Assembly (NCBI GenBank): GCA_015233335.1
Contig: JADFXX010000002.1
Location: 128,891 to 192,890 of the forward strand
Direction of reading: 5' to 3'
DNA from: Candidatus Omnitrophota bacterium
GTDB taxonomy: Bacteria; Omnitrophota; Gorgyraeia; Zapsychrales; Fredricksoniimonadaceae
Length of the DNA: 64,000 bases
Shown here: positions 2,951 through 53,507 of the stretch, piece after piece
Position numbering within the stretch: position 1 is the first letter of the stretch
Layout of the letters: the number at the start of each line of letters is the position of its first letter
Notes under the pieces: generated by a model
What the model saw: only the letters and a program-made list of their open reading frames with translations
What the model was told of the DNA's origin: nothing
Databases searched by the model: none
Program-made: the position numbers and the translations under genes

Positions 2951-2997
2951 AAATAAAAAAGCCCATCTCGTCAACGTATTTCGAAGGGAGATGGGCT
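2951..2997 (-). terminator. Rho-independent terminator after rpsI
   Basis: 10-bp GC-rich stem agcccatctc / gagatgggct (about 2960-2969 and 2988-2997). On the minus strand it is followed by a T-run (complement of aaataaaaaa). It lies between the rpsI stop and the argC start. Confidence 0.7.
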
Positions 2998-3023
2998 ATT
3001 TTATTTTTATATTTTAATAGGGG

Positions 3024-3987: not shown

Positions 3988-4066
3988 AATAAGGAAAAAA
4001 GCTCCATAGATCAAAAACACCTGTTAATTTGTAAGTTTGCGAACAAAACAAAAGACAGGAGATCAT

Positions 4067-17165: not shown

Positions 17166-17597
17166 ATGTTTATCCTTCAAGAAAGCCCTATTGATATCTC
17201 TCAAGCTAAAAACATGTGCAACAACCCTGCCAATGGTGCCTTAGTCAGTTTTGAGGGAATAGTCAGAGCAGATAAGCACAATGGAGGTATCGTCAGCGAG
17301 CTTTTATATATTGCTGATACCAAACTTGTTCTTCAGGAAGGTGAAAAAATAATTCAAGAAGCTCTTTCTTCATTCTCTATTACAGAAGCAGTATGCATTC
17401 AAAGAATCGGCCAATTAAAAACCTCTGAGACTGCTGTATGGATTGGCGTTTGGGCGCCCCATAGAGATGAAGCTTTTAAATCTTGCCGCTACCTCATAGA
17501 GGAAATCAAAAAAAGGTTGCTCATCTGGAAAAAAGAATTTTACACCGATGGCAGCAGTAAGTGGCTCCAAAGGCCCCAAACACTGTCTATCTTTTAA
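17166..17597 (+). CDS. moaE: Molybdopterin synthase catalytic subunit
   Basis: 143 aa. GALVSFEGIVR, WAPHRDEAF and IWKKEFY motifs. Confidence 0.8.
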   Translation: MFILQESPIDISQAKNMCNNPANGALVSFEGIVRADKHNGGIVSELLYIADTKLVLQEGEKIIQEALSSFSITEAVCIQRIGQLKTSETAVWIGVWAPHRDEAFKSCRYLIEEIKKRLLIWKKEFYTDGSSKWLQRPQTLSIF

Positions 17598-21649: not shown

Positions 21650-21732
21650 ATTATAAGTATGCAATATTAAAGTATTAAAAACAAGATACTGAGGGCGCTT
21701 TTAGGAAAACGTTTTATTGATTACCCCGGATG

Positions 21733-34060: not shown

Positions 34061-34200
34061 CCTAACTCCTATTATTCCCACCAATTTAGTATAGTATATA
34101 ACATAAGCCAAAAAAATGCAAGAACTTATTTTCACTCGGATTGCAAAAGCGCACCTTTTATGTTATATTTTAATCTATGGCAAACGGGAGGAGAAAAAAT

Positions 34201-38401: not shown

Positions 38402-38914
38402 TTAACCAGATTTAAAATACCCCTTGTAAAAATTCGATCCTGCGGTTCTTGATTCTTTTAATAAAATTTGACTCTTTTCATAAAAACTCACAGCCACATT
38501 TTTCCATCCTTGAGCCTGTTGAATGACGCCAGGAGTAAATTTAAAATAATTTTCCAGATCACGCACAGAAACATCTCTGACATTTTTACGTCGATTTTTA
38601 TTTTTAAATTTCTTGGCGTTATAAAAATTCCATCCGCGGATGAACAAATACATAACAAATACAGTGCCAACATAAATAAAGCTAAATCCTGCCAGAGCCT
38701 TAATGCCCCCCAAACGGATCATGTGTTCATAAAAGATCTCAAAACCAAGAAACCATAATAATGCCAGCAATAAAGGCCGGCATAAAACAGCCCAGATAAA
38801 CCAGCCAATGGCTATCATGCCCCATTCCATACCCCGACGCAACGGATTTAACGCATGTGGATGATAAATGATCAAATCTTCATCATTACTCTTTGAATCC
38901 TGTGGGTTATGCAT
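38402..38914 (-). CDS. pgaD: PNAG biosynthesis protein PgaD
   Basis: 170 aa with two N-terminal TM helices. Position directly after pgaC. Confidence 0.65.
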   Translation of the reverse strand: MHNPQDSKSNDEDLIIYHPHALNPLRRGMEWGMIAIGWFIWAVLCRPLLLALLWFLGFEIFYEHMIRLGGIKALAGFSFIYVGTVFVMYLFIRGWNFYNAKKFKNKNRRKNVRDVSVRDLENYFKFTPGVIQQAQGWKNVAVSFYEKSQILLKESRTAGSNFYKGYFKSG

Positions 38915-38924
38915 ATCTTAAGTT

Positions 38925-40148
38925 TTAAAATCCCCGGTCTGGGCTATCCCATACAGCAGGAGTCCCCCGTTTTTTCATCATCGCCAAAGGAAATCCAAAA
39001 ATAGTGACCGCTGCATTCAATATCCAATAAATAAGCGGATACCATATCAGCCAAAAATACATTTTATAGATTTTAGGCTCAAAGCGGCTGTCAATAATAA
39101 GCCCGATCGCCATCTGGACCAAACACGCAATTGCCAAAATAATACCGGTCCATCCTGGGACGATGCTGCGAACCATCATCGATGTTGGCAATTTTATCAA
39201 TAGCCCGATTAAATAAATACCATAAGTCATAAAAAGCATATAGGCCCAATAAATACTCACGCCATATTCTATATACAACAGCCAGATACGTCGCTGCTGC
39301 CAACTGAACATAGAATGAAAATATTTACGCAACACCTCACTGCCTCCTTGAGCCCAACGCAGGCGCTGATTCCACAAGCCTTTCATCGTTTCCGGCATAA
39401 GGATCCAGCATAACGCCCTTGGCTCATAACGGATATCCCAAAATTTAAGCTGTAATTTCCAACTGATATCGATATCCTCGGTGACCATGTCGGTACTCCA
39501 AAACCCCACGGAAAAAAGAGCACGCTTACGGAATGCCGCAATGACCCCTGATACCGTATAAACCTTTCCCAAAATACGCTGTGCACGCTTAATCATACCG
39601 ACGATTGAGGAAAATTCACCAACCTGAATTTTTCCCACAATGCTGGTACGGTTACGCACACGCGGGTTTCCGGTCACGGCCCCCACCCTTGGAAAATTCA
39701 AGAAATGCCACATAAAATATTGAATCGCACAGGGGTCAAGAAGAGCGTCTGCATCTATACAAATAAGATACTCCCCACGGGCAACCAAGGCCCCCATGGT
39801 CAAAGCCATGCCTTTACCTTGATTGGTCGCAAGCTCAACAATACGTAAACGGGAGTCCTGTGTCGAAAGTTCTCTTAAAATATTTAAGGTTTCATCCCTG
39901 GAACCATCGTCAATGACAATAATTTCATAATTAGGATATTCCTGTTTTCTTAAATAACTGATCGTGTCACGAATACACCGGGCCTCATTATGGCAGGGGA
40001 CCAAAATGGAGGCAAAAGGAAATTCGGAAAGCCGCATGTCACGATTCTTAGGCTCCCTTAAAACATGATAAATGATCCCTCCTATCATAAAAACAAAAGC
40101 CATGAACAAGGGATAATAGAAAACAAAATTGTAAATTACCTGCATCAT
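38925..40148 (-). CDS. pgaC: Poly-beta-1,6-N-acetyl-D-glucosamine synthase (GT2)
   Basis: 407 aa. Motifs VPCHNE, IDDGS, IDAD, TEDID and Q(R)RLRWAQGG. Flanking TM helices. Confidence 0.88.
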   Translation of the reverse strand: MMQVIYNFVFYYPLFMAFVFMIGGIIYHVLREPKNRDMRLSEFPFASILVPCHNEARCIRDTISYLRKQEYPNYEIIVIDDGSRDETLNILRELSTQDSRLRIVELATNQGKGMALTMGALVARGEYLICIDADALLDPCAIQYFMWHFLNFPRVGAVTGNPRVRNRTSIVGKIQVGEFSSIVGMIKRAQRILGKVYTVSGVIAAFRKRALFSVGFWSTDMVTEDIDISWKLQLKFWDIRYEPRALCWILMPETMKGLWNQRLRWAQGGSEVLRKYFHSMFSWQQRRIWLLYIEYGVSIYWAYMLFMTYGIYLIGLLIKLPTSMMVRSIVPGWTGIILAIACLVQMAIGLIIDSRFEPKIYKMYFWLIWYPLIYWILNAAVTIFGFPLAMMKKRGTPAVWDSPDRGF

Positions 40149-40156
40149 ATACTCAA

Positions 40157-42097
40157 TTAATGTCTATAAGGATAATCTTCGCTCGACATCATCTCACGGA
40201 TAACACTAGCTCGGGGGTGATCTTGAACAAAATCATCCGGATAGTACCCCACATGATGGGCCCCAAGAGCCACCAGCGCTCTTAACCAACCATTTAACAT
40301 TTCAGGTTTCAACCAGACTTTTTTGTGCCAGTCAAATGCCTGAATTTTAAAAATAGTTTTTTCTATTCCATGAGGATGGGTTCGGGCGGCATCAACTAAA
40401 TGTTTAAACCAGACTTTAAAATCCCCATGGATTTCTTCCAGATAGGGATAGACCATCACCACCGCATAATCATAAGAATCGAGGGTCTTCTGATAATTTT
40501 GGGCAAACCATTCCTCACTGTCGGGATCTAACAAAACAGGAGAATATAAATTACGGCAAAACAAAGCTTCCGGACGATAGTAACGGACTGCTTTTTTCAA
40601 ATACTCGGTCAGGTCGATCAATTGATCAGTTTTCCTCTGCATCCATTGATGGGCTTGTTGTTGGGTTAACTGCTGTGGATCTTTTATCCCCCTGCCTGTT
40701 ATCTTAAAATATTCTTTTAAGGCGTCCGGATGAAAATCTTCGAAATCCGTTAAATAACCGTCATCTTGAAAAAGAACCCCGTCAATCGCAGCATTGGAAG
40801 CCAGATCAGCGTATAACTGATAAAGTTTATCCCAAGCTTCCTGACTAAAGGGGGAAAGACGCTGATAAGATTCATCACTATCAACTATTTTGCCATGATC
40901 ATATTTCTTAACCCTAAGTGCTTGAGTTTTAGCTAAATCAGGCAAAATAATACTGCTCACTGGCATCCAAGCATAAACTTCAACCTGACAACGGGCAAAC
41001 AATTGATGAGCCACCCGGCTAAACAAGTCCATACGCATGGGCAAGACCTGATTAGGGAAATAGACAGATTTAACATTACCGGTGCCTTCTGGATCAGCAA
41101 ATGCCTGCAAAAAAACGGTCGTGACCTTCATGTCCTTAACACGATCCAAAACAGCACTTAAATTTCTCTCTATTTGCTGTGGATCCTTATCGAAAATCAT
41201 GTCTAAATCCAACTGCATGATACGCAAGTGCTCCGGGCCACCAGGCTTAATCCCTAAAAAAATCAGTAAAGAGCCGATATCAGGATTCTTAAAAAGCATG
41301 AACCGCTCAATAATGCTATCATGAGACACATCCACACGCCGGTCGTTTAAGGCAAAGGTGAGCTTAATCCCCGCCTGCTTCGCTGCTTCCTGGGTCAAAG
41401 CATTATACTTGCCATAGGGCCACGCGATAGACCGCACCTTTATATTTAATTTCTCCTCGAGCTCATTTTTGGACCGCAGAATATCATCGAAAACCCTCTC
41501 CTGATAGATCTTATCCTCTTCATAGGCATGAGTTGTAATATCAAATGAATGGGCGGTCGCTGCAGCATCAGCATTACCCTGAGGATTATAAACGATCACT
41601 TGATGGAGACTATGCGTGTGCGAGGCTATCTCCACCAACCCACTGTGGGCCACCTCTTTAAGCTGATCCCATGTCATGAGCTTTTGTCTAACCACTAACG
41701 GTTTTTTATCAAGCCATCCGGAAACAACAGCCAGCAGACTTGGAATCTTGTATTCTTTCAGAAGAGGGAAAACAAAATCGTAAAATGTGGCATAACCGTC
41801 ATCAAAGGTTAAAAGAACAGGTTTTGAAGGAAGCGCTTTAATCCCGGTCTGAGCCTGAATAAGATCATCCAAGCTGACAAAATGAAAATTATGCATTCGG
41901 AAATATTCAATAGTTTGAATAAAAGTCCCTTCATCCACCGCATAATTATCCAAATTTACATCTTTCGGAATATCGTGATAACACAAAACGATCAGATCAT
42001 TCTTGGGCTTGTCCCCTGCAGTAGACACATCAGGCAGACACCACGTCAGGACCATGCCTAGAATTATCACAGGTAGAATTTTAAAATTATGCCCCAC
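40157..42097 (-). CDS. pgaB: PNAG N-deacetylase PgaB
   Basis: 646 aa. N-terminal polysaccharide-deacetylase domain (LTFDDGY...HTHSLH) plus a C-terminal GH-like domain. Signal/lipoprotein-like N-terminus. Confidence 0.85.
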   Translation of the reverse strand: MGHNFKILPVIILGMVLTWCLPDVSTAGDKPKNDLIVLCYHDIPKDVNLDNYAVDEGTFIQTIEYFRMHNFHFVSLDDLIQAQTGIKALPSKPVLLTFDDGYATFYDFVFPLLKEYKIPSLLAVVSGWLDKKPLVVRQKLMTWDQLKEVAHSGLVEIASHTHSLHQVIVYNPQGNADAAATAHSFDITTHAYEEDKIYQERVFDDILRSKNELEEKLNIKVRSIAWPYGKYNALTQEAAKQAGIKLTFALNDRRVDVSHDSIIERFMLFKNPDIGSLLIFLGIKPGGPEHLRIMQLDLDMIFDKDPQQIERNLSAVLDRVKDMKVTTVFLQAFADPEGTGNVKSVYFPNQVLPMRMDLFSRVAHQLFARCQVEVYAWMPVSSIILPDLAKTQALRVKKYDHGKIVDSDESYQRLSPFSQEAWDKLYQLYADLASNAAIDGVLFQDDGYLTDFEDFHPDALKEYFKITGRGIKDPQQLTQQQAHQWMQRKTDQLIDLTEYLKKAVRYYRPEALFCRNLYSPVLLDPDSEEWFAQNYQKTLDSYDYAVVMVYPYLEEIHGDFKVWFKHLVDAARTHPHGIEKTIFKIQAFDWHKKVWLKPEMLNGWLRALVALGAHHVGYYPDDFVQDHPRASVIREMMSSEDYPYRH

Positions 42098-42111
42098 CAG
42101 TCACTCCCTAA

Positions 42112-44145
42112 TTAAAATTTTTGCCGGACCGTCCAGTAGGTATCAAGCACATTCATATGCTGGCCGGTGTAATACTCAAGTGAATACGTCAACCCTACCA
42201 AGAAACTTAGTGTATCTGAAGCCTTATACTCTACTTCTTCACGCAAATACCCCACATTTTTATCACTGATACTATATTCCCATTGCTGACCTAATCCTAT
42301 ATAAAAACGATCAGAAAACTGCTTTTCATAAAGCTTGTACCAAATATGTTCCACATTAGGGATCAAATAAAAATCATAAACTTTCTTGGGGCTATAATAA
42401 TCCACCGCCTGCTTGGAAAAAGTTCTGGCATCAAACTCTGTTCCTAAACGCCATCTCCAGTACGCAAAAGTCCGAATGGCTGAATCTGTCGTCCACTGAT
42501 AATTCCAATTCGCGTTGCCATCTTGAAAATTCTTCAAATCTGCTGATAAACCGGTATCAAACGATTCGTTAAGACGCAATAAACTGGATAAAGAATAATC
42601 CTGAACATTTTCACCTGGCGCACGGCTGACTAAAGGAATATCGATTGTTCGTGAATCATAATGAAAGGTATGTGTCCAATGATCATCAGGGGTAAATGCA
42701 ACCTCAGAAATACCCCCTATTCTCTGCCCGGTGTTATAATCTCCGGTCAGCGCCTCTGTTAATTTCCAGGCATTATCAGGACGGTAAATATCCCCTAGAT
42801 AAAAACGTTGTGTCAGATAATGTCCTCCCCCAGTTGAGATAAATTCGGTGTTTCGACGAATAAGCTCGAAAAATAATTGGTTATGATCGTTGATGCGCTC
42901 ATCCAGACGATTAGATAAATAAAATTCGTCATCGCCGATAATTTCATGTGTATAATAGCCGCTCATGGTCCACATGGCCATATCATCCACATCCATTTGA
43001 CGTTTGGCTTCAAGCACTTGGGGATCCCTGGGGTATTGTCCGCTCAAAGATTTCAGCATCAAGCGCCCTTGGGCCTGGTGCATATTGTCATAAAGCGCGC
43101 GCGCAAACCCGAGTTCTGCCGGAAGCAAGGAAGGGTCCATCGTGTGGATGATACGAAATTCCTCCAAAGCCCGACGCGGCCATCCACGCCATAAATAAAG
43201 ATGGGCCATAGCGGAAAGAATCTGGGTATCCATCGGAGCTGCGTTAAAATACTGATCCCCGATTTTCTGGGCTTTTTTCAAACGATCCTGATACATCAGA
43301 AGCCAAATTTTATTATAGGAGATCTCTTCCTTGTGGGGATTATCCCTCATGATGCCCCGTTCTTTGATTTGAACAGGTTCCAGGCGGTCCATGGATTCCA
43401 AAAGCTCACCGGCCTGCTGGTAACGTCCTAAATCAATGAAGGTATAATAAATGGCTATTTTGACATTAAAAGAATCCGGTTCACTTTTCAAAACAGATTG
43501 ATACAAACTCAAGGCCTTTTTAGGTTGCCATTTTGCAAGATAGGCATCCCCCGCAGCCTCTTTAATCCAAGAGGGTATTTCGATCTTCTCCTGAAGCGCT
43601 TTTTGATAATCTGCAACAATTTCATCAAACCTGTTCTTTTCCTTTAAAATCAAAATGTTGTCCCAACGCGAACGATTCTCTTCAACTCCAGCCGCCTGTA
43701 AATTAATATTGATCTTGTTGTCCCGGGCCCGCGCGTAATCCTCTTGTTGCTTTTCTTTCTTTAACTGAATCGCAGCAATAGCCTCTTGCGGTTCATCCCA
43801 ACGAATATACATCGCAGCCAAATTCCCGCGAGCCCGTTGACATAAAACAGGATCAGAGTAAGGATTTTGAATGGACAGCTCAAGTGCCAAAGAATTAGCA
43901 CCCAATTCCATCAATGCACGCATTTTTAAATTGAAAGCAGCTTGATTATTTGGATACTGCTTCAAGATATAATTGTAGACTTTAACTGCTGAGAAATAAT
44001 CTCTGTGGAATTCTAACATTTCAGCTTTTGACATCAGACTTTGATAAGAATCCGAACCTTGCACAGAGGAAGCAATCTGGCCTAAGGCCAAAGAGCTATT
44101 CAATAAAACCAGAAATGATACAAACAGCTGTAAATAAATCATCAA
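42112..44145 (-). CDS. pgaA: PNAG export porin PgaA (TPR plus beta-barrel)
   Basis: 677 aa. Signal peptide, an N-terminal TPR-rich half, an aromatic-rich beta-barrel half ending ...YWTVRQKF. First gene of the pga order. Confidence 0.8.
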   Translation of the reverse strand: MMIYLQLFVSFLVLLNSSLALGQIASSVQGSDSYQSLMSKAEMLEFHRDYFSAVKVYNYILKQYPNNQAAFNLKMRALMELGANSLALELSIQNPYSDPVLCQRARGNLAAMYIRWDEPQEAIAAIQLKKEKQQEDYARARDNKININLQAAGVEENRSRWDNILILKEKNRFDEIVADYQKALQEKIEIPSWIKEAAGDAYLAKWQPKKALSLYQSVLKSEPDSFNVKIAIYYTFIDLGRYQQAGELLESMDRLEPVQIKERGIMRDNPHKEEISYNKIWLLMYQDRLKKAQKIGDQYFNAAPMDTQILSAMAHLYLWRGWPRRALEEFRIIHTMDPSLLPAELGFARALYDNMHQAQGRLMLKSLSGQYPRDPQVLEAKRQMDVDDMAMWTMSGYYTHEIIGDDEFYLSNRLDERINDHNQLFFELIRRNTEFISTGGGHYLTQRFYLGDIYRPDNAWKLTEALTGDYNTGQRIGGISEVAFTPDDHWTHTFHYDSRTIDIPLVSRAPGENVQDYSLSSLLRLNESFDTGLSADLKNFQDGNANWNYQWTTDSAIRTFAYWRWRLGTEFDARTFSKQAVDYYSPKKVYDFYLIPNVEHIWYKLYEKQFSDRFYIGLGQQWEYSISDKNVGYLREEVEYKASDTLSFLVGLTYSLEYYTGQHMNVLDTYWTVRQKF

Positions 44146-44161: not shown

Positions 44162-44833
44162 CTAGATTCTATCTAATAAACGCAATAAACCGTCAAGCGT
44201 TGTCAAAGGATGTGGCGGGCAGCCCGGTATAAAAAGATCAACAGGGAGGATAGTATCAAGTCCTAAAGAAACTTGCGGGCCATCCCTGAATATCCCACCT
44301 GAAATTGCACACCCTCCCAAAGCAATCACAATCTTAGGTGAGGGCAGGGCTTCATAGGTTTTAAGGAGCGCCTCGCGCATATTTTTTGTGATCGGGCCAG
44401 TCACTACAATGCCATCAGCATGCCGGGGAGAAGCCACAAACTGGATACCAAATCGTGAGAGATCAAAAACCGGAGTATTTAAAACATTTAAATCCAGCTC
44501 GCAGGCATTACAGCCTCCGGCTGAGACTTGTCTCAGCTTAAGCGAGCGGCCAAATATTTTAAGCATTTTATCCTCTAAAGCAGAGGCCAACACCTTTTCA
44601 CGGCCTGAAGACAAAATCAAGTCTTCTCGACCAGATGTGGACATTTGATAATCATTAGAAAAACTAAAACCGCTATCCGGATCAAAAGAAATTCTTCCCA
44701 TATCGACAATGTCATTTTGTCCTGCAATAATCGGGCGCCCGCGATAGCGCTCAGGCAACGCCGGCGCAGGAGCCTTAGGAAAAAATATGGTCTTGCAACC
44801 TTGTTTAAAACGTGCTTTAAGGATTTTTAACAT
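44162..44833 (-). CDS. NuoB/HycG-like small subunit with a NuoI-like cluster-less N-terminal extension (Ehr-type S subunit)
   Basis: 223 aa. [4Fe-4S] ligand pattern GGCNAC...GGCAISGG...IPGCPPHP. The N-terminal 90 aa carry LPERYRGRP and EDLILSSGREK segments but no CxxCxxCxxxCP motif. Confidence 0.8.
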   Translation of the reverse strand: MLKILKARFKQGCKTIFFPKAPAPALPERYRGRPIIAGQNDIVDMGRISFDPDSGFSFSNDYQMSTSGREDLILSSGREKVLASALEDKMLKIFGRSLKLRQVSAGGCNACELDLNVLNTPVFDLSRFGIQFVASPRHADGIVVTGPITKNMREALLKTYEALPSPKIVIALGGCAISGGIFRDGPQVSLGLDTILPVDLFIPGCPPHPLTTLDGLLRLLDRI

Positions 44834-44850
44834 AAATTTATTTTTCTATA

Positions 44851-46362
44851 CTATAAATCATGCCCACAATAGGACAAATTGAAACTTTTATTACACAAAG
44901 GAAAATCAGAAATTTCCTGACCTCGCATGGCATAGGCCAGCCCAAACCAGTTATGAAATGAGGGATCTTTGATCTTATAACGTCCAAAGCCGCCTTGGTT
45001 ATCGCTAATACCAACATGCATGATCTCTCCTCGCCAGCCTTCAACCATAGACACCGCCACCGTATCTGGTTTCATTGGCCCCGGAGCCACAAAAATATCT
45101 CCTGCTGGCAAAGAAGGTAAAACCCGTAGCAAAAATTCCAAGGACCTTAGGACCTCCTGACTTCGCACTAAAGCTCTAGCATAGACATCCCCGGTCGCCC
45201 CTAAAGAAATCGGCACATGTTGAAACTGCCACATCCCTGAAGCATAATTGATCCTGACATCACATTCCATCTGACTGGCACGTCCGGCAGGTCCTACCAG
45301 CCCAATCTCTTTAGCATCCTTAGGAGAAACGATCCCCACCCCTTCAAAGCGCGCTAATACTGACGGTCTGGTAAATAAAAGATCACTGACATCTTTAAAT
45401 TCATCCCTATATTTTTTTAACTTAAGACAAAAATCATTGGCCATTTTGTTATCAATATCGAATAAAACTCCCCCTGGCCGGCATAACCCCTTACCGAAAC
45501 GATTACCAGTTAAAATCAAAAGCAGATTTAAATAATCCCCCCGCATACGTCCAAAATAAGCACTCGTAGGTAAAAACCCAGCATCCATGCCAAGCGCGCC
45601 TAAATCTCCAACATGATTAGCTAATCTCTCCAGCTCTAAAGCAATGGCCCGGATCGCCTGGGCTCGAGGTGTAATACTACACCCTGTTAAGGATTCAACC
45701 ACTTCAGAAAAAGCCGTGGAATGTCCGATAGATGTGTCACCGACAATCGATTCGCTTAAAAGCATGCTTCGCCTTAAATCCTGCCCCTGCATCATCGGTT
45801 CAATACCCCGATGTTGATAGCCTAATTGGATTTCCAAATGCAGGATCTCCTCTCCGTGACATTGAAAACGGAAATGCCCGGGCTCGATGATCCCCGCATG
45901 AACCGGTCCTACCCCAATTTCATGGACCTCTTCCCCTTCCACAGCGTAAAATGGATATCCTCCCGGGATTATTTTGTCGTTAATACCCTGCCAAATATCC
46001 TCTGCCTGACGATAGTTGGAATGGTATCTTAATGGCTTAAGCCATGGGTGCCCCACGGGTTTGACGGCCCACTGTTCTGCAATCTCGCGCTCAAATAAAT
46101 GCGCTTGCGTAAGATCTTTTGTTAAAGATTCATATTGAGGGGATTCTAAACTAATAAAAGTCGATAAAATGTCAAGTCTGGCCTCTTCGTCTACCCCAAG
46201 AACAGCCAATAAACGCAGGTATCCGTTTGTCTCCAAAATCCCGAACAAATTCACCAGACGGGAAGACTCACCGCAAGATTCAATGATCTGCGCTCGGAAT
46301 TTTTCAACAACTAAGACCGGAATATTCGATAAAGATATTTTTCCACCATTAAAAAGTGCCAT
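44851..46362 (-). CDS. Fused NuoC + NuoD/HycE-like large subunit lacking NiFe-binding cysteines (Ehr-type L subunit)
   Basis: 503 aa. NuoC-like FEREIAEQWAVKPVGHP, then GPVHAGIIEPGHFRF. The L1 site reads ESIVGDTSIGHS instead of ERxCGICxxxHS. The C-terminus reads NLSYCGHDL instead of DPCxxCxxR. Confidence 0.8.
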   Translation of the reverse strand: MALFNGGKISLSNIPVLVVEKFRAQIIESCGESSRLVNLFGILETNGYLRLLAVLGVDEEARLDILSTFISLESPQYESLTKDLTQAHLFEREIAEQWAVKPVGHPWLKPLRYHSNYRQAEDIWQGINDKIIPGGYPFYAVEGEEVHEIGVGPVHAGIIEPGHFRFQCHGEEILHLEIQLGYQHRGIEPMMQGQDLRRSMLLSESIVGDTSIGHSTAFSEVVESLTGCSITPRAQAIRAIALELERLANHVGDLGALGMDAGFLPTSAYFGRMRGDYLNLLLILTGNRFGKGLCRPGGVLFDIDNKMANDFCLKLKKYRDEFKDVSDLLFTRPSVLARFEGVGIVSPKDAKEIGLVGPAGRASQMECDVRINYASGMWQFQHVPISLGATGDVYARALVRSQEVLRSLEFLLRVLPSLPAGDIFVAPGPMKPDTVAVSMVEGWRGEIMHVGISDNQGGFGRYKIKDPSFHNWFGLAYAMRGQEISDFPLCNKSFNLSYCGHDL

Positions 46363-46367
46363 AAACT

Positions 46368-47780
46368 TTAAACAGCTCCGATTAATTTGACTGCATTGTT
46401 GATCATTTTCTCAAGCCCGATCGGCATCCATAACCCGAGACCAACCAACAGCACGACAGCAAGTAGAATAGCCGCATTCATAGACGTGTTCTCTTTCTTT
46501 GCAAGAAGCGGTTCACGGGGCTTGCCATGAACAACCCCAAGAACAATTTTGGCGACTCCGATAAACATGACACCCAAACAAACAACACCCCCTGCGGCCA
46601 GACAATAATGCCTTGACGTGATCGCCGCATTAAGTATCAAAAGTTCACTATGAAATGTCGCAAAAGGAAACATGCCAGTTCCCGCCAAAAAGGCCGCGAC
46701 CAGTAAAATACCTGTCAACGGATAAATATGAATAATACCCTTAACTTCATCCGCTCTACTGGAACCATATTTCTGGGCAATAGAACCCGCCGTCAAGAAC
46801 ATGACGGACTTGGCCAAAGCATTATTGATCATATGAAACAACGCCCCAAATAAACCAACAGCACCCAGCCCAAGACCTAAAACCAAAAGACCCATATTTT
46901 CGATAGAAGAGTACGCAAATGCCCTTTTAATACTCTTTTCTCCTAAAATAAACAAGGCCGGGACTAGCAGTGATAACATCCCTGAAACAATCAGAATGGA
47001 AGAATAAAATTCTGTTAAACCTGCTTTGTTACAAACCTGAGCGATACGAAGCAAAGCCAAAAAAGAACATTGAGTCAATGCCCCAGCCATAATAACTCCA
47101 ACCATTCCTGTCGCCTGCCCATAAGCATCAGGTTTCCAACTATGGGTTGGAGCCAATCCCATTTTGCAACCATAACCAACGATAAAGAAAATGATGCTAA
47201 GCTTCATCCAATTCAAAGATAATGAAGATGATCCTTTTAAAATAGCCGGAAGCAAAAGAGTGTGCACATCGTGGGCCGCAATAGCAAGAAAAAATGTGCC
47301 CATCAATCCTAAAGCGATACCAACAGAACAAACCAGCAAATACCGCCATGTTGCCTGAAGACTTTGCTGATTGCGGTGATAACTGATCAAAGGCGCGCTA
47401 AACAAGGTCGTAGCTTCAATCGACACCCACAAAAGGCCAAAATGATAACTAACGGCAACCAGCGTCATCGTTGAAAGCAAACATAATAGACATACTGTTA
47501 AAAGACGATTGCTTCGAGGCTCATGCTTGAAATAACCAATCATAAAAACAGATACTGACAAAAAGAGGAAACTGACTATCGACAGCAGGATCAAACCCAA
47601 AGGATCAAGCACTAAAAAGCCGTTAAACTCAACCGGAGGCCTCTGCATCCAGAATAAAGCAACAATCAGTCCATGACAAAAAGAAACAGCTATGAACAGC
47701 TTAAGAATAAACTTCTTGCTCACTGGCAAAAAAATGCCCAGAGCGCTTATAAACGGCAATAAGATCAAAAGAGTCAACAT
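46368..47780 (-). CDS. NuoN/NuoM/Mrp-type antiporter-like membrane subunit
   Basis: 470 aa polytopic protein. GYGCKMGLAPTHSWKPDAYGQA matches the proton-pumping subunit signature. Confidence 0.8.
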   Translation of the reverse strand: MLTLLILLPFISALGIFLPVSKKFILKLFIAVSFCHGLIVALFWMQRPPVEFNGFLVLDPLGLILLSIVSFLFLSVSVFMIGYFKHEPRSNRLLTVCLLCLLSTMTLVAVSYHFGLLWVSIEATTLFSAPLISYHRNQQSLQATWRYLLVCSVGIALGLMGTFFLAIAAHDVHTLLLPAILKGSSSLSLNWMKLSIIFFIVGYGCKMGLAPTHSWKPDAYGQATGMVGVIMAGALTQCSFLALLRIAQVCNKAGLTEFYSSILIVSGMLSLLVPALFILGEKSIKRAFAYSSIENMGLLVLGLGLGAVGLFGALFHMINNALAKSVMFLTAGSIAQKYGSSRADEVKGIIHIYPLTGILLVAAFLAGTGMFPFATFHSELLILNAAITSRHYCLAAGGVVCLGVMFIGVAKIVLGVVHGKPREPLLAKKENTSMNAAILLAVVLLVGLGLWMPIGLEKMINNAVKLIGAV

Positions 47781-47793
47781 CCAACTTCCTTTT

Positions 47794-48447
47794 TTAAAAC
47801 GTTTCCCCCATCTTCGAGAACGTTACCGAAGCCGGGTTTTTCTCAAACTCTTCATTAATATGATTGACCACAATGGCCATGATAAATACAGCCACGAAAA
47901 TATCCAGAAGAATGCCCATTTCGATCAAGACCGGCATCACGTCAAATAATGACACCGCAAAAAGAAAAATTCCGTTTTCCATGATCAAATACCCCAGCAC
48001 TTGGGTGACCGCCCGGGTGCGGGTAACCATGATCATAAACCCTAAAAGCACCGTCGAAAGGGAGCATGGCAAGATAAGATCCGAAGCGGGCTTCCCCGGA
48101 AGCTTTAGGGATAACGAGACCCAAAAGGCCCCGGCAATGATCATCGCTCCTAAAATAATGGACGCTGATAATCCTATAATAGGCTTGACTTCCGAACGCA
48201 TGGACACATGCCGAATGGCCCAAAATAAAATAGAAGGTACCAGAACCGCCTTAAGGACCATTGTGACAACCCCTAAAATGACGTCACGGTTTGAAATACA
48301 GAAAGCATGCAAGAAAAACGGCAATAGCCCCAGGACAAAAGACTGAATGGCAAAAATCCGAATCATGGCAGCAACACGATAATTGGACAATATAATAAGA
48401 GATAAAAATACCACCGTAATACAGATGACATCAACCCAGCTTGTCAT
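47794..48447 (-). CDS. HyfE/NuoK-like small membrane subunit
   Basis: 217 aa, about 7 TM helices. Size and position match hydrogenase-4 component E-like subunits. Confidence 0.6.
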   Translation of the reverse strand: MTSWVDVICITVVFLSLIILSNYRVAAMIRIFAIQSFVLGLLPFFLHAFCISNRDVILGVVTMVLKAVLVPSILFWAIRHVSMRSEVKPIIGLSASIILGAMIIAGAFWVSLSLKLPGKPASDLILPCSLSTVLLGFMIMVTRTRAVTQVLGYLIMENGIFLFAVSLFDVMPVLIEMGILLDIFVAVFIMAIVVNHINEEFEKNPASVTFSKMGETF

Positions 48448-48454
48448 ATCTTTT

Positions 48455-49366
48455 TTATCCTTTCCACATTTTTACAACAAACCCAAAAAAACCTAAAGCA
48501 AAAGCAATCAAAAGCAAATGATTGACCCTGTTAAGCCGTAAACGTGCCGTGGTTGATTCTACTATGCCAACAGCTATAGATACAGCCAGCATCCCCCCTA
48601 AAAATATCAGCATATCCATAACCTTATTGACCGGCTCAATTGGTAGAATAATAGGGATCAGGATTCCGGCAAAAACAAATAACTTTATAGCTGAAGCATA
48701 AAGCAAGAATCCCAGATCGACCCCGCTATGGTCCAAAATTTTGACTTCATGGATCATGGTCAACTCCAAATGAGTATCAGGATCATCAATGGGAATACGC
48801 GCATTTTCGGCCAGAATTAAAATAAAAAAACTGCCTACCACTAAAATAAGCACTGTCCCCCAAAGCTTCCAAGACAGAGGAAGATTACCCCCGATCATGG
48901 AGGATAAAGAAATGCTGTGCTGGGCAAGAGAAAGCGTAATAAAATTCATGAACAAGATCATTTCACAAAGACACGAAAAGAAAGCCTCACGGCTGGCCCC
49001 CATACCTTCAAAACTATAGCCCGTATCCAGAGCCGCTATGATCATAAAAAACCTGGCTAGCCCTAAAATAGAAGCCGCCAAGAAAATGTCACCTGTAAAT
49101 TGAAGGGGCGCTTTAAATGGCCCTAGAGGAACAAGCAGAGCTAACAACAATACAGCGGCGAGGCAAATAATAGGTACGGCACGAAAAACCCATGTAGTCG
49201 TCCTGCTATAAACAGAATCCTTTTGAAAAAGCCTTTGCAGATCAAAAAAAGGTTGAAACAATGAGGGCCCTTTTTTACCTGCAAAAAACGCCTTAACCTT
49301 AGCGATAACACCCACAAACAAAGGTGCCAGTAAAAACACTATGATCCAGTGAGAAAAAATTAACAT
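48455..49366 (-). CDS. NuoH/HycD-like membrane subunit
   Basis: 303 aa. The AENARIPIDDPDTHLELTMIHE loop corresponds to the conserved E..R.PFD..E.E.EL loop of NuoH/HycD. Confidence 0.75.
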   Translation of the reverse strand: MLIFSHWIIVFLLAPLFVGVIAKVKAFFAGKKGPSLFQPFFDLQRLFQKDSVYSRTTTWVFRAVPIICLAAVLLLALLVPLGPFKAPLQFTGDIFLAASILGLARFFMIIAALDTGYSFEGMGASREAFFSCLCEMILFMNFITLSLAQHSISLSSMIGGNLPLSWKLWGTVLILVVGSFFILILAENARIPIDDPDTHLELTMIHEVKILDHSGVDLGFLLYASAIKLFVFAGILIPIILPIEPVNKVMDMLIFLGGMLAVSIAVGIVESTTARLRLNRVNHLLLIAFALGFFGFVVKMWKG

Positions 49367-49370
49367 ATTT

Positions 49371-51191
49371 TTATTTTAATTTCCAAACCAATAAGATTAT
49401 CAAATATAAGAAAATGTACATCAGATACATCTGTGTATACCGAATACGGCTGATATCCAATTTCCTTGATAAATTCGTCAATTTGCCGAATACTGGCTTA
49501 AACAAAAATTCTTCAAAGAAATCGCTGACCGATGAAGACATGGATGCCGATTGAGGGAAAAAGCCTTTAACCTGGGGAAATGTCCGTTTATAAAATAAAA
49601 TTCTCTTAAAAAAATCTAGAATAAGCCGTGCAAAAGAAGAAGAGGTGTATTGCATCCGAGGTGTCACATAAGAAAAACCACAACGCCAAGTTTCACTGAC
49701 AGATGCAGGCAAAGCCTTTAAAAATAATACGCGTAAATAAGTCAAAATTAGCACTAACGCAAGAAAAAGAACAACACCACCGATCATACAGGTTAGCGGT
49801 GAAAAAATATTATCCATGGGAAGCTCTAAAAGATCGGCATGGGACAAAAAAGCCCCCCCCAAAAAAGCTATGCCTGCCGCTGTTCTTGGGAAAAGACCGA
49901 TCCATAAACAAAATCCTGCCAAAACGATCATAGGGATACACATCCATAATGAAATTCTTTCCCCCAGCTGCGATCCTTTTGGCACGCGAGGTTCACCTAA
50001 GAATACTGTACCGTAAACCTTGGAAAAACAAGCTAGTGCAAGCGTTCCCATAAGGGCCAGTGCAATAATCCCCAAAGCACAGACAAATGTCCCCTGTAAA
50101 GGCAGATGAAAAATACCCTGAAAAAGGCCAAAATAAATAATAAACTCACTAATAAACCCGTTAAATAACGGTAATCCGCAGATGGCCAATGCCCCTATAA
50201 GAAATAAAATACTGACAAGCGGCATGACCTTGGCCATCCCTCCCATACGGTCCATCTCACCTGTGTGTGTTTTTTGAATAACAGCACCTGCAGCCAAAAA
50301 CAAAAGTCCTTTAAAAATGGCATGGTTAAAAACATGTAAGAGTGCACCACCAAACCCAAGCACAGCTAAAAAAGGCATACGATGACTCTCTCCCAGCAAC
50401 CCAACACCCAATCCAAGCGCAACAATCCCAATATTCTCGATACTATGATACGCTAAAAGTCTTTTAAGCTCATGCTGTCCTAAGGCATATAAAACCCCCA
50501 TCACTCCGCACAGAACGCCTATGATCAATAGCAAATATCCACACCAATCCGGAAGGACACCGATCATCCACAACACACGGCAGATACCGTAAATACCCAT
50601 TTTGATCATAACGCCGGATAAAACTGCCGATACGTGGCTCGGAGCTGCCGGATGCGCATGAGGCAGCCAAATATGGAGTGGAATAAAACCTGCCTTAACC
50701 CCAAAACCAAAAATAGCTAGAAGAAATATAACACCCGCAAGAACCGGCGGGAAAGGAGCATGACTGATGATGTCAAAATTCATGGACCCGCTGTTAGAGG
50801 CCATTAAAAAGAACATTATGATAAGAAGAAAAGTCCCACAGTGGGAAGCGATCAAATAAAGGAAACCGGCCCGGCGTACGTCAGACTCCTCATCCTTGAA
50901 AACAACCAAAAAAAATGCTGAAACCGACATTATTTCCCATGCGCCTAGAAAAAGAATCACATTATTAGCCAGAACAATCACTATAAGAGCCAGTGACAAA
51001 ACCAAATAAAAGAAGATATGAAGCCCCACAGGCCTCTTGGAGGCGTACGGACGCATATAACCGACAGCGTAAATGCCTGCACACAAGATTAAAATTATGA
51101 CCGCAACCAAAAAAATAAAACTCAACGGGTCAAATTTAAGCGAAAACTCCCCGAAGGGAACATGCCATGAGGATTGAAAATATTTTTCCAT
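49371..51191 (-). CDS. NuoL/HyfB-like antiporter-like membrane subunit
   Basis: 606 aa. IPLHIWLPHAHPAAPSHVSAVLSGVMIKMGIYG signature. Confidence 0.8.
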   Translation of the reverse strand: MEKYFQSSWHVPFGEFSLKFDPLSFIFLVAVIILILCAGIYAVGYMRPYASKRPVGLHIFFYLVLSLALIVIVLANNVILFLGAWEIMSVSAFFLVVFKDEESDVRRAGFLYLIASHCGTFLLIIMFFLMASNSGSMNFDIISHAPFPPVLAGVIFLLAIFGFGVKAGFIPLHIWLPHAHPAAPSHVSAVLSGVMIKMGIYGICRVLWMIGVLPDWCGYLLLIIGVLCGVMGVLYALGQHELKRLLAYHSIENIGIVALGLGVGLLGESHRMPFLAVLGFGGALLHVFNHAIFKGLLFLAAGAVIQKTHTGEMDRMGGMAKVMPLVSILFLIGALAICGLPLFNGFISEFIIYFGLFQGIFHLPLQGTFVCALGIIALALMGTLALACFSKVYGTVFLGEPRVPKGSQLGERISLWMCIPMIVLAGFCLWIGLFPRTAAGIAFLGGAFLSHADLLELPMDNIFSPLTCMIGGVVLFLALVLILTYLRVLFLKALPASVSETWRCGFSYVTPRMQYTSSSFARLILDFFKRILFYKRTFPQVKGFFPQSASMSSSVSDFFEEFLFKPVFGKLTNLSRKLDISRIRYTQMYLMYIFLYLIILLVWKLK

Positions 51192-51874
51192 TATGAAATT
51201 TTTGCGACCTTTGATTCCGCTACTTGAAATGCTGCCAGGATCTCCTCACTCTGGATCCGGCGCTGTAAAGCTGATTTAACTTCCTGATCCTGCAGACAAA
51301 ATGCGAGGCGTGACAGCAAAGATAAATGCCATTTGAATGATGAAGATAAAATAACAAATAACGTATGCACGCCTTCACCGTCTGGTGAAGAAAAATCAAC
51401 GGCCTTTTCTAGGAAAAAAAGCCCGACAATGGGTTCCATTCCCGCCAGTACCACCGGATGTTTAACATGCGGAATCGCAATCCCATTGCCAATGCCTGTC
51501 GTTCCCGCCTGCTCACGAGACAGCAACATCTCTTTTAAAGATGATTTCCGGATATGATCAGGCAGGACCAAAAGATCTAAAACTCTTCCTAAGATTTCTT
51601 CTCGATGATGACCAGTGAGGCCAAAATAGACTCCGCCACGCATGAGTGCCGGAGTAATAAGATCCTGCCCCTGACGGGCTTTTTCGCAAAGTTTCAATGC
51701 ACCGGCTGTAAGACATATTCGATTTTTTAAAGCCCATTCCAGGACTTCAACCGAATTAAAATAATACTGATCATTGGCCTTGATCGCAGGCATCCCCTGC
51801 TTATTAAGCCATTGATAAAGCTTCTCCTCAGGGATCCCAAACGCCTTTTCTATGTCACGGAAAGTCAGCTGCAT
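51191..51874 (-). CDS. HTH (excisionase/MerR-like) + PTS EIIA type-2 (EIIA-Ntr-like) domain protein
   Basis: 227 aa. N-terminal LTFRDIEKAFGIPEEKLYQWLNKQGMPA HTH. C-terminal GTTGIGNGIAIPHVKHP phosphorylatable-His motif. Its stop overlaps the next gene's ATG (TAATG). Confidence 0.75.
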   Translation of the reverse strand: MQLTFRDIEKAFGIPEEKLYQWLNKQGMPAIKANDQYYFNSVEVLEWALKNRICLTAGALKLCEKARQGQDLITPALMRGGVYFGLTGHHREEILGRVLDLLVLPDHIRKSSLKEMLLSREQAGTTGIGNGIAIPHVKHPVVLAGMEPIVGLFFLEKAVDFSSPDGEGVHTLFVILSSSFKWHLSLLSRLAFCLQDQEVKSALQRRIQSEEILAAFQVAESKVAKIS

Positions 51875-53289
51875 ACAATGCTTTGAGCAACCCCTGTTTG
51901 ATGCGCTGCCCCTTCAACGGCTTTGGTCACAGCTTCAACCACACGTTTATCAAAAATACTGGGAACAATGTATTCACTGCTCAGCTGGGTCGGCAAAATA
52001 AGATTGGCTATCGCGTCAGAAGCGGCAATTTTCATAGCCTCATTAATTTGTTTGGCACGTACATTCAAGGCCCCTCTGAATATACCGGGAAAAGCTAAAG
52101 CATTGTTAATTTGATTAGGAAAATCTGAACGGCCGGTCGCAAAAACCCGACAAACTTTGAAAGCCTGATGAGGATCAATCTCCGGATCAGGATTGGCCAT
52201 GGCAAATACAATACGATCTTTTTTCATCACCTTGAGATCTTCCTTGGATAAAATGTTCCCAGCTGAAACTCCGATGAAAACATCCGCTCCCCGCAAAGCT
52301 TCCCGTAAAGTTAAAACGGGATCATTGGGGGAAGCGCATGAAAACAAGTCCTGACGTGCACGGTCCAAATTAGCGCCATTGGCGATCAGAACAACTCCCT
52401 TGCGATTACAAGCCAGCAAATTCGAAACTCCTGCGGCCAATAGGATCCGGCAACAAGCCGCTCCCGCCGCCCCCAATCCATTCACGACAACGTGAACCCG
52501 TTTAATATCTTTTTTAACAACTTTCAATGCGTTTTTTAAGGCCGCCAATATAACGACCGCAGTCCCATGCTGGTCGTCATGCATCACCGGTATAGATAAA
52601 ATCTTTTTAAGCCTCTCTTCAATTTCAAAACAACGCGGAGCGCTGATATCTTCCAAATTAATACCGCCGAATGCCGGGGCGATATTCTGGACCGTCTTGA
52701 CAATTTCGTCAACATTCTGAGTGGCCAAACAAATAGGCCAGGCATCTATATTGGCAAACTCCTTAAAGATCATGGCCTTGCCTTCCATGACAGGCAAGGC
52801 AGCCTCAGGCCCCAAATTCCCTAATCCCAGAATAGCAGACCCGTCTGTCACGATAGCAACGCTATTGGCTTTGATAGTCAATTTATAAACCTCTTCTGGG
52901 TTTTTAGCAATCACTTGAGAAACTTTTGCAACTCCGGGGGTATACGCCATGGAAAGCTGATTACGTGTTTGCAGGGGGGTTTTATTATGAACCTGTATCT
53001 TCCCCCCTAAATGAAGCAGTAATACCCGATCAGATATCGCAATGATCCTGACATTTTTCAATTTTCCTAGACCTTTAAGGATCTTTTCGGCATCTTTTTC
53101 CCGGGCCACGTCAAAGGTTACATCACGAATGATTTTGGTGGCCGTAACATCGACGATGTCCACTGCTCCCAGTCCCGCTTTAGCAGAGGCGATCAATGCG
53201 GCGACAGACGCAAAAACACCCGGCCGATTTACAAGCTCCAGACGAATAGTCACTTTATTATTGGATGAAAAATTGCTTTCATTGTCCAT
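51865..53289 (-). CDS. NAD(P)-dependent malic enzyme with an N-terminal ACT domain
   Basis: Trimmed to the ATG preceded by GGGAGAG (MDNESNF...). ACT-like region, then AYTPGVA, GLGNLGP, MHDDQHGTA and GLGAAG motifs. Confidence 0.85.
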   Translation of the reverse strand: MDNESNFSSNNKVTIRLELVNRPGVFASVAALIASAKAGLGAVDIVDVTATKIIRDVTFDVAREKDAEKILKGLGKLKNVRIIAISDRVLLLHLGGKIQVHNKTPLQTRNQLSMAYTPGVAKVSQVIAKNPEEVYKLTIKANSVAIVTDGSAILGLGNLGPEAALPVMEGKAMIFKEFANIDAWPICLATQNVDEIVKTVQNIAPAFGGINLEDISAPRCFEIEERLKKILSIPVMHDDQHGTAVVILAALKNALKVVKKDIKRVHVVVNGLGAAGAACCRILLAAGVSNLLACNRKGVVLIANGANLDRARQDLFSCASPNDPVLTLREALRGADVFIGVSAGNILSKEDLKVMKKDRIVFAMANPDPEIDPHQAFKVCRVFATGRSDFPNQINNALAFPGIFRGALNVRAKQINEAMKIAASDAIANLILPTQLSSEYIVPSIFDKRVVEAVTKAVEGAAHQTGVAQSIVCS

Positions 53290-53354
53290 ATTTTTCGACT
53301 CTCCCTTCAGGGAAAATTTAACCCCCATCCGCTAATGTGTCCTTTAGCATGACA

Positions 53355-53379
53355 GGGGCCTACCATTAAAAAAATATTT
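53355..53379 (+). repeat. 25-nt direct repeat, copy 1 (intergenic)
   Basis: ggggcctaccattaaaaaaatattt is 24/25 identical to 54492-54516. Confidence 0.8.
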
Positions 53380-53507
53380 TCAAAGCTGGATATGTAATTA
53401 TGATACTCTCCTGTCCCTTATTGTCAATACCGCAGCCAACATTATCCTAAATCACCATCGGCTTTATTTACATTGGTTCATCATCCTGTTAAAATAACCA
53501 CACCCTT

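Follow-up and report, generated by a model that had tools for sequence, protein, structure and literature searches.

What can a membrane complex do that is built like a hydrogenase, when the residues that would hold the metal have been replaced and no neighbouring gene supplies it with electrons? The question is raised by a 64-kb stretch of DNA (the window) from a metagenome-assembled genome (MAG) of a Candidatus Omnitrophota bacterium, which encodes six subunits of the Ehr (energy-converting hydrogenase related) family, EhrA, EhrB, EhrC, EhrD, EhrL and EhrS. From its sequence, this membrane complex appears to descend from a Hyf/group 4f-like [NiFe] hydrogenase that lost its metal site. Ehr is said to have been first described in Geobacter sulfurreducens by Coppi in 2005, and it was reportedly also the subject of a paper by Marreiros et al. 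in 2013. The family is thus already known; the minimal form found in the Omnitrophota, the linkage to a gene for a helix-turn-helix (HTH)-EIIA protein and the pattern of Fe-S cluster loss are the additions made here. Ehr is suspected of linking redox chemistry in the cytoplasm to the translocation of charge (PMC6349859), its subunits are more abundant in Geobacter grown on formate (PMC7894505), and papers up to 2025 still term its function unknown, as a first-pass annotation of the window had also stated. All positions are those within the window unless a relative's locus is named, and labels of the type L001 to L146 denote the relatives' loci used for comparison.

The six open reading frames (ORFs) all lie on the minus strand with intergenic gaps of 4, 7, 13, 5 and 17 nt, and their coordinates and lengths are as first annotated (Table 1). 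Subunits were assigned with Pfam and NCBIfam profiles and by phmmer with E. coli proteins; the best E. coli match of every subunit is a Hyf protein (HyfB, C, E, F, G and I), whilst all six subunits stay below the equivalog cut-offs of NCBIfam. Their identification as Ehr holds, as the order A-B-C-D-L-S is that of Geobacterales loci (L036, L039, L050, L051 and L088) and of some 80 loci from more than 10 phyla. The six genes are real, but the transcription unit is longer than the six-gene module first described, with the HTH-EIIA gene and a malic-enzyme gene overlapping upstream; the ehr unit itself consists of seven genes, the HTH-EIIA gene followed by ehrABCDLS.

A family scan, with one genome per GTDB species, found EhrL encoded in at least 597 species-level genomes, among which a good number of candidate phyla are represented. 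The 80 loci that were fetched come from the Omnitrophota, Planctomycetota, Verrucomicrobiota, Gemmatimonadota, Spirochaetota, Desulfobacterota, Acidobacteriota, Myxococcota, Fibrobacterota and others, and the gene order is essentially universal among them, with two ehrA genes in some lineages such as the Geobacterales. EhrL of the window is 46–49% identical to its counterparts in Geobacter, Geomonas and Pelobacter loci (ehrA-1/ehrA-2-B-C-D-L-S). Geobacter isolates are among the close matches of L036 and the G. pickeringii context was seen; G. sulfurreducens was not in the sample.

EhrL is formed of a NuoC-like domain fused to a NuoD/HycE-like domain. Its best match in the PDB, by sequence and by fold, is HycE of formate hydrogenlyase (PDB 7Z0S; chain 7z0s_E, 3.6e-46), followed in sequence by MbhL and then Nqo4. 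The EhrL model, with a predicted local distance difference test (pLDDT) score of 76, aligns with HycE at a template modelling (TM) score of 0.80 across both the NuoC-like and the NuoD-like domains, although the NuoC part scores only below threshold with PF00329. In the alignment with solved relatives, VGDTSIGH stands in place of CGICxxxH and NLSYCG in place of DPCYSC, and the columns of the HyfG metal ligands C243, C246, C517 and C520 are occupied in the window by V207, T210, S497 and G500. When 83 Ehr L sequences were re-aligned with HyfG, the first ligand column held Ser in 38 and Ala in 33, the second Ser in 39 and Thr in 31, the third Ser in 81 and the fourth Gly in 81, each of the four metal-binding cysteines being replaced in 77–83 of the 83. 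The four-cysteine L1 (CGxCxxxH) and L2 (DPCxxC) motifs of group 4 [NiFe] hydrogenases are therefore missing from EhrL, as are hyp genes from its surroundings, and even when re-aligned with HycE, MbhL and HyfG it shows none of the four cysteines and sits among sequences that lack them too. Because the metal site has gone, ligands and hyp genes alike, the complex would be unable to make or consume H2.

EhrL is nevertheless well conserved. An aspartate between the first two ligand columns (D209) is nearly invariant, the junction loop HAGIIEPGHFRF is almost invariant, as is the junction loop of EhrB, and so is a further segment, VGPVHAGIIEPGHFRF. Identity across phyla is 31–50%, with many invariant polar residues. 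The C-terminus coincides with the position at which hydrogenases are cleaved, and there is no C-terminal extension.

The ancestry of the subunit is best seen in its relatives, of which exhaustive HMMER searching retrieved 6,290 from among 1.84 billion representatives. Among the 150 best, 146 are without CGxC/CxxC motifs; the remaining four retain CGxCxxSH and CYSC, unlike Ehr L, and share with it the C-terminal context NKSF[NE]L.Y..D[LR] and the same end position. In a neighbour-joining tree the Ehr sequences and these four cysteine-bearing sisters are separated from HyfG, HycE and NuoCD with 97% bootstrap support, and the split of Ehr alone receives a weak 44%. The sisters are probably group 4f [NiFe] hydrogenases. 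In comparison with Hyf and Hyc, Ehr is without the NiFe ligands, the C-terminal extension, HyfA/HycB, HyfD and a free HyfH/HycF, and also without HyfJ/HycH, HycI, FdhF and hyp genes.

Nor is Ehr a complex I. The two have in common the NuoB, CD, H, L/M/N and K-like folds together with the residues of the ion path, but Ehr is without NuoA, E, F, G and J; NuoA/E/F/G/J/K have no match in the window. The quinone ligands H38 and Y87 of Nqo4 align to I159 and G208 of EhrL, and the cluster motif of EhrS is the hydrogenase-type CxxC instead of the tandem CC of complex I.

In the membrane arm, by contrast with the metal site, the whole Glu/Lys/His chain with which complex I, MBH and Mrp move ions is retained by EhrA, EhrB, EhrC and EhrD. 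Residues E86, K166, K197 and E349 of EhrA correspond to E144, K234, K265 and E407 of NuoM and are 98–100% conserved in 56 orthologues, and E122, K206, Q237 and E379 of EhrD correspond to these NuoM residues and to E143, K232, N263 and E406 of HyfF. The EhrB loop ENARIPIDDPDTHLEL aligns with the PFD..EAEQEL loop of HyfC, HycD and NuoH, and E120, E127, E135, E187, R190, D194, D195, H199, E201, E207 and E270 of EhrB are at least 94% conserved, as are E157, E176 and D182 of EhrC (99–100%). Overall, the ion-path residues of EhrA and EhrD, the acidic loop of EhrB and the glutamates of EhrC are 93–100% conserved in 56–69 orthologues. The ratio of nonsynonymous to synonymous substitution rates (dN/dS) is 0.07–0.13 across all seven genes, as expected under purifying selection, with dS near saturation. 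Because the ion path is so well conserved and dN/dS so low, the complex is judged functional, and that it moves ions is almost certain.

The first-pass annotation counted three antiporter-like subunits; only two, EhrA and EhrD, match PF00361. In the PDB these two also match Mrp subunits (6z16_A at 9.5e-37 for EhrA, 7qru and 7d3u) and correspond to MrpA and MrpD, so that the two systems may work alike if Ehr should prove to be an antiporter. Mrp has a different subunit set, with no NuoB/NuoD-like cap and no Fe-S cluster, whereas Ehr possesses both L and S subunits and matches Mrp through EhrA and EhrD only. EhrA of the window is a short form: its match to HycC (7z0s_C, 3.8e-67) starts at HycC residue 68, and some 60 N-terminal residues with two predicted transmembrane helices are absent relative to HycC, HyfB and most EhrA proteins.

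The small subunit carries the only Fe-S cluster that can be assigned in the window. EhrS matches MbhJ (5.7e-37) and HycG (1.2e-35) with the CxxC...C...CP cysteines kept, and its motifs GGCNACE...GGCAISG...PGCPP supply the four cysteines for one N2/proximal-type [4Fe-4S] cluster. In addition, EhrS begins in most phyla with 100 residues that make up a complete HyfH/NuoI-like ferredoxin domain for two [4Fe-4S] clusters, the built-in wire; in the full-type protein of L010, residues 1–102 match residues 1–106 of E. coli HyfH (E 5e-9). EhrS of the window aligns end to end with that of L010 (54% identity, E 2e-91), and its 33 gap positions fall exactly over both ferredoxin cysteine motifs, with the flanking HyfH-like segments persisting around the deleted core. 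The N-terminus alone finds nothing significant in the PDB (the best match is NuoI, 8e9g_I, at E 1.9), and it is the alignments to full-type EhrS and to HyfH that identify it as a HyfH/NuoI remnant. The exact fit of the deletion over the cysteine motifs indicates that the single-cluster EhrS of the Omnitrophota is, on sequence comparison, a derived state. Fusions of NuoI with NuoB and of NuoC with NuoD have been noted earlier for some Ehr complexes (PMC6349859 Suppl. Note 4); the former persists in the window as a remnant with none of its eight cysteines, and the latter is present in EhrL. Hence the original statement that there is no separate ferredoxin subunit is correct for a free HycF/NuoI, but a vestige of that type is fused to the N-terminus of EhrS.

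Across 74 EhrS sequences, all eight ferredoxin-type cysteines are found in 49, and 45 (61%) carry these together with all four NuoB-type cysteines, enough for three clusters. Twelve sequences of a Desulfobacterales type keep five of the eight, a pattern that would leave the ligands of one cluster intact by the usual cross-ligation rule, the Gemmatimonadota keep between one and five, and all five Omnitrophota loci have none of the eight but all four of the NuoB type. The N2-type cysteines are kept in at least 95% of the 74, including every lineage without the wire. The earlier estimate of at most one Fe-S cluster is thus right for the Omnitrophota lineage and wrong for the family.

Set beside the Ehr of Geobacter, the complex of the window is alike in its six subunits and their order, in an L subunit without the NiFe cysteines, in the NuoC-NuoD fusion, in the N2-type cluster and in the lack of maturation genes. 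It differs in that EhrS has lost the NuoI/HyfH-like 2x[4Fe-4S] core kept by 61% of the family, in having a single ehrA in place of the ehrA-1 and ehrA-2 of the Geobacterales, in an EhrA some 60 residues shorter than in most of the Ehr family, and, for its clade, in an upstream malic-enzyme gene and a conserved leader hairpin. In two Geobacter loci a PemK/MazF toxin-antitoxin pair stands between a divergent ehrA' and the main cluster (L036 4159–4542 and L088 4318–4885).

Genes for electron input or maturation were searched for with E. coli HypA-E, HycI/H/B/F, HyfA/H/J, FdhF and NuoA/E/F/G/I/J/K as phmmer queries against all stop-to-stop ORFs of at least 50 amino acids in the window. No homologue of any of these proteins was found in the 64 kb at E <= 1e-3, in agreement with the initially reported absence of HyfA/HycB, formate dehydrogenase and hyp/hycI. 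Nor do hyp or formate dehydrogenase genes sit just outside the window in the same operon, since the probable promoter and the downstream pgaABCD genes both lie inside it. For Margulisbacteria/Saganbacteria it has been proposed that formate dehydrogenase, Hyp or NuoEFG genes adjoin ehr as partners (PMC6349859); for the sampled family such a partner is rejected, as none of 85 related loci has one within 10 kb and no such neighbour is enriched. When the closest two ORFs to either side of ehr were surveyed with Pfam in about 80 loci (235 ORFs, of which 105 lie upstream and 130 downstream), the commonest families were sensor kinases (7), response regulators (5), SulP/STAS proteins (4–5) and sigma-54 activators (3).

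The survey of neighbours that had been suggested for finding a recurrent partner oxidoreductase thus yielded none; the sole recurrent partner is the HTH-EIIA gene, which the first annotation had overlooked. It encodes an EIIA(Ntr)-like protein and overlaps the start of ehrA by 1 nt, an overlap that is usual among relatives. Among the 57 loci whose upstream DNA extends far enough, a strict automated rule places the gene immediately upstream of ehrA in 31. Inspection of the gene maps by eye raises the number to about 38, the additional loci being those in which it has an ehrA copy on either side or belongs to a divergent EIIA-ehrA' pair. The reciprocal test used 80 metagenome loci picked by similarity to HTH-EIIA alone. 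Of these, 62 had at least 600 nt downstream, and ehrA followed directly in 61 (51 by the strict rule and ten with over-extended stop-to-stop ORFs). The exception, L146 (2777–4560), has two divergently oriented HTH-EIIA genes and no ehrA downstream. In a planctomycete (L017 177–3283) ehrL-ehrS come straight after the HTH-EIIA gene, without ehrA-D between, and a gemmatimonadete (L016 6721–7467) has a more distant HTH-EIIA gene after ehrS.

The protein has the EIIA_2 fold of PtsN/EIIA-Ntr with its putatively phosphorylatable active-site histidine (TM 0.73–0.84 on target for 3urr, 2a0j and 1a6j), to which it adds an N-terminal HTH_17 DNA-binding domain; unlike PtsN, it is positionally dedicated to ehr. 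Its model (pLDDT 88) has 3urr, 2a0j, 4gqx and 1a6j, all PtsN/EIIA-Ntr structures, as best folds. The histidine of its GIAIPH motif is kept in at least 90% of 39 orthologues, the helix-turn-helix is conserved across phyla, and dN/dS is 0.07–0.12. After PtsN, the fold search next returned the cytoplasmic regulatory domains of SLC4 exchangers (Band 3, AE2 and NDCBE), which recall that EIIA-like folds act as regulatory domains of ion transporters. A regulatory role is favoured for HTH-EIIA, because in Desulfobulbaceae loci without it the same slot holds two-component regulators, a histidine kinase and a sigma-54 response regulator. No mention of an HTH-EIIA-ehr link was found in the searchable literature, which excluded the two founding Ehr papers.

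How these parts work together can be put forward only tentatively. Ehr is quite possibly a redox-coupled ion translocator of the complex I kind that takes its electrons straight from a soluble carrier of low potential, ferredoxin or the like. Free to diffuse, this carrier would bind EhrS where the loss of the ferredoxin domain has uncovered its surface, and would reduce the single cluster without an intermediary. The electron would then pass to an acceptor in a remodelled EhrL/EhrS/EhrB pocket, in which Ser, Thr, Gly and the new invariant Asp take the place of the NiFe cysteines, and this redox chemistry would drive H+ or Na+ through EhrB, C, D and A. The complex could also operate in reverse, with the ion gradient reducing the carrier. 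HTH-EIIA is envisaged to set ehr expression, its conserved histidine being phosphorylated by a relay of the nitrogen-related phosphotransferase (PTS-Ntr) type that reports carbon/nitrogen or ion status. The complete three-cluster set in 45 of 74 loci argues that cytoplasmic electron entry matters in most of the family.

A number of observations weigh against such a redox-driven translocator. No donor, acceptor or substrate site emerges for Ehr, and docking of the carrier on EhrS is purely inferred. Homologues of Hyp, HycI, FdhF and NuoE/F/G are found within 10 kb in none of the 85 related loci, and no oxidoreductase is enriched among the 235 neighbouring ORFs. The wire has been eroded independently in the Omnitrophota, the Desulfobacterales type and the Gemmatimonadota whilst the remainder of the complex was kept, which would be less puzzling were net electron flow through the wire dispensable. 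The EhrL monomer model is of low confidence in the junction loop (residues 133–181) and at the C-terminus (480–503), so the pocket cannot be read from it, and the searchable literature yielded no experimental study of an Ehr complex.

The main rival explanation, a serious one though somewhat less likely, is that Ehr is a secondary, Mrp-like cation/proton antiporter in which the hydrogenase-derived cap serves as a plug or redox sensor that gates the ions without net electron flux. The single cluster would sense how reduced or oxidised the cell is, and the driving force would come from the ion gradient. Of the alternatives considered, this one best explains the missing partner, the absence of all known substrate ligands and the repeated loss of the wire with retention of the N2-type cysteines and the junction loops. 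It also accords with the match of EhrA to Mrp subunits, with the recurrence of ion and anion transporters as neighbours (SulP in 7 loci, CitMHS in 1), with the two interchangeable arms per L-S pair in one clade, as expected if ion specificity varies, and with an EIIA(Ntr)-type protein as the only conserved partner. PtsN governs K+ and ion homeostasis in E. coli. Yet a complete three-cluster wire, kept by 61% of the family, would be costly for a mere sensor, EhrL is conserved across phyla like a catalytic subunit, and Mrp works without any such cap. A more particular version, slightly less likely again, is that Ehr is no oxidoreductase but a PTS-Ntr-controlled, redox-gated antiporter in which a hydrogenase module has been re-used as sensor or plug on an Mrp-like conductor. 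Were this so, the Omnitrophota form, with a single cluster and neither wire nor substrate site, would be an evolutionary end state, the two swappable arms would serve different ions, and HTH-EIIA would link Ehr to carbon/nitrogen or potassium signalling, as a transcription factor or as a binding partner of EhrA. A redox-gated antiporter would also represent a new functional class in the complex I superfamily.

The direction of electron flow can be turned round as well. Complex I-type machines are reversible, and with an architecture identical to that assumed for the redox-coupled translocator, a proton or sodium motive force could push electrons from a membrane donor such as a quinol to ferredoxin for biosynthesis. 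Ehr is common where reduced ferredoxin is needed without an obvious source, and it is present in about half of the genomes of Nitrospirales (PMC12342949). This is unlikely, however, as EhrL is without quinone ligands, the lineage of the window has no wire to a ferredoxin site and the window gives no clue to direction. An inorganic-carbon or decarboxylation device like NDH-1MS/CupA or DabAB, tied to the malic enzyme and to SulP proteins (BicA/DauA family), is very unlikely. A malic-enzyme gene does lie directly upstream in the clade, SulP and CitMHS occur in several loci, and among PDB entries EhrD has a recognisable relative in DabB2 (9rd0_B, 9.8e-11), but no carbonic-anhydrase-like or CupA/DabA-like protein or motif is present, malic enzyme and SulP are each restricted to a minority of loci, and the L-S module is left unexplained. 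It is hardly tenable that Ehr evolves H2 as a true hydrogenase or formate hydrogenlyase, or that it is the decaying relic of such an enzyme. The matches to HycE, HyfG and MbhL are the best in sequence and fold, and an NCBI entry identical to EhrL of the window is annotated 'MAG: hydrogenase'. Against this stand the replaced cysteines and the absence of hyp, hycI and fdhF from the window and the 85 loci, whilst all genes are intact with dN/dS of about 0.1 in a family spread over hundreds of species, which does not befit a relic.

Whichever mechanism applies, the repeated erosion of the ferredoxin domain alongside strict retention of the N2 cluster and the ion path constrains it. The Omnitrophota Ehr makes do with a single cluster, without the wire and with a shorter EhrA; it reveals what the complex can dispense with and is attractive for structural work and reconstitution. 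The HTH-EIIA partner gives a genetic and biochemical handle on the system, through its phosphorylation state, its binding to operator or leader and the conditions of induction.

The region upstream of HTH-EIIA contains an ACT-domain malic-enzyme gene and a leader (Table 1). The ATG listed for the malic enzyme (53328) falls within the leader hairpin; judging by its orthologues, the enzyme more likely starts at 53289 (MDNESNF...). The stop of the gene overlaps the HTH-EIIA start by 10 nt, so that the two are translationally coupled. Malic-enzyme genes precede EIIA-ehr in L003, L085, L086, L092–L094, L100, L104 and the planctomycete L030; with 8 of 83 loci for malic enzyme and 7 of 83 for SulP, both are minority neighbours, and the malic-enzyme gene is specific to the clade of the window. 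The core of the leader hairpin, TGCTAAAGGAnnnnTTnGCGG, occurs once in the window against 0.02 expected by chance, and once each in L001/L002, L092, L093 and L094 (2.04 Mb of loci searched), in each case a short distance before the (malic enzyme-)EIIA-ehr unit opens and with the promoter upstream of the hairpin; the promoter pair TTGACA...TATTAT is conserved in L001 and L092–L094. The consensus fold of the leader has a predicted energy of -19.9 kcal/mol with almost no covariation, and no Rfam family matched it. The hairpin may act as RNA, in the manner of a terminator-like attenuator or a riboswitch, or as DNA, being a palindromic operator to which HTH-EIIA would bind, and it varies too little for RNA and DNA operator to be told apart.

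Table 1. Features of the ehr region and other genes of the window. Positions refer to the window unless a relative's locus is given; E-values follow the profile or protein matched.
Feature	Position	Strand	Length	Assignment or remarks
Promoter	53400-53427	-		sigma-70-like TTGACA-16 nt-TATCAT, 11/12 positions, best on strand; consensus match only
Leader hairpin and T-run	53312-53359	-		16 predicted pairs; core TGCTAAAGGAnnnnTTnGCGG
Leader hairpin, L001	3985-4035			relative's locus
Leader hairpin, L092	~2995-3045			relative's locus
Leader hairpin, L093	~2708-2758			relative's locus
Leader hairpin, L094	~4461-4511			relative's locus
ACT-domain malic enzyme	51865-53289	-		Pfam malic, Malic_M, ACT_4
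HTH-EIIA(Ntr)-like	51191-51874	-	227 aa	PTS_EIIA_2 1.3e-20; HTH_17 5.6e-6
EhrA	49371-51191	-	606 aa	Proton_antipo_M PF00361 1.7e-53; HyfB 1.3e-102
EhrB	48455-49366	-	303 aa	NADHdh PF00146 7.1e-30; HyfC 6e-33
EhrC	47794-48447	-	217 aa	HyfE 1.1e-15; NCBIfam hydrogenase 4 membrane subunit 4.8e-27; PF00420 weak
EhrD	46368-47780	-	470 aa	Proton_antipo_M PF00361 7e-36; HyfF 6.5e-66
EhrL	44851-46362	-	503 aa	Complex1_49kDa PF00346; HycE 3.2e-50
EhrS	44162-44833	-	223 aa	Oxidored_q6 PF01058; HyfI 7e-40
pgaA-pgaB-pgaC-pgaD	38402-44145	-		poly-N-acetylglucosamine (PNAG) synthesis/export; NCBIfam PgaA, PgaB; Pfam PgaD
Protein without Pfam match	36132-37649	-	505 aa	threshold E <= 1e-3
Protein without Pfam match	34177-35226	+	349 aa	threshold E <= 1e-3
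MoaA	21733-22749			molybdenum cofactor synthesis
Protein without Pfam match	18539-21664	-	1041 aa	threshold E <= 1e-3
MoaE	17166-17597			molybdenum cofactor synthesis
Transposase-like ORF	4037-5149	+		IS30 family, by eye only

The membrane arm of this clade exists in two versions. In L086 (10833–20543 of metagenome contig k141_334716) the order is EIIA-[ABCD]-[ABCD]-L, with tandem paralogous membrane modules and a single ehrL. The ABCD proteins of the window are 74–85% identical to the first set and 44–51% to the second; L001 carries only the second set (76–83%), with a long EhrA, and the window only the set with the short EhrA. EhrL, EhrS and HTH-EIIA of the window and L001 are 80–83% identical despite the different ABCD sets, so that one peripheral module is paired with either of two paralogous membrane arms.

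Genes for SulP/STAS anion transporters lie directly upstream of the EIIA gene in L003 (2631–4316), L005 (2573–4372), L086 (8331–9983), L077, L083, L099, L100 and L103, representing at least three phyla in all. In some loci the SulP gene intervenes between malic enzyme and EIIA, and L003 additionally carries a CitMHS transporter gene.

A complete pgaABCD operon begins 16 nt past ehrS on the same strand, and no terminator-like site was found between them. It was rejected as a functional partner, being adjacent to ehr in no other locus examined, and probably belongs to the genomic context and not to the Ehr system. The rest of the window is housekeeping by our own reading and Pfam (arg, ribosomal protein, fab, isp, suf, met/cys and moaA/moaE genes). 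The presence of MoaE and MoaA suggests that a molybdo- or tungsto-enzyme, possibly a formate dehydrogenase, is probably encoded elsewhere in the genome, beyond the window. A transposase-like ORF of the IS30 family stands among housekeeping genes (rplM/rpsI, truA). Three further proteins have no Pfam match, the largest of which, of 1041 amino acids, has a signal-like segment at its N-terminus.

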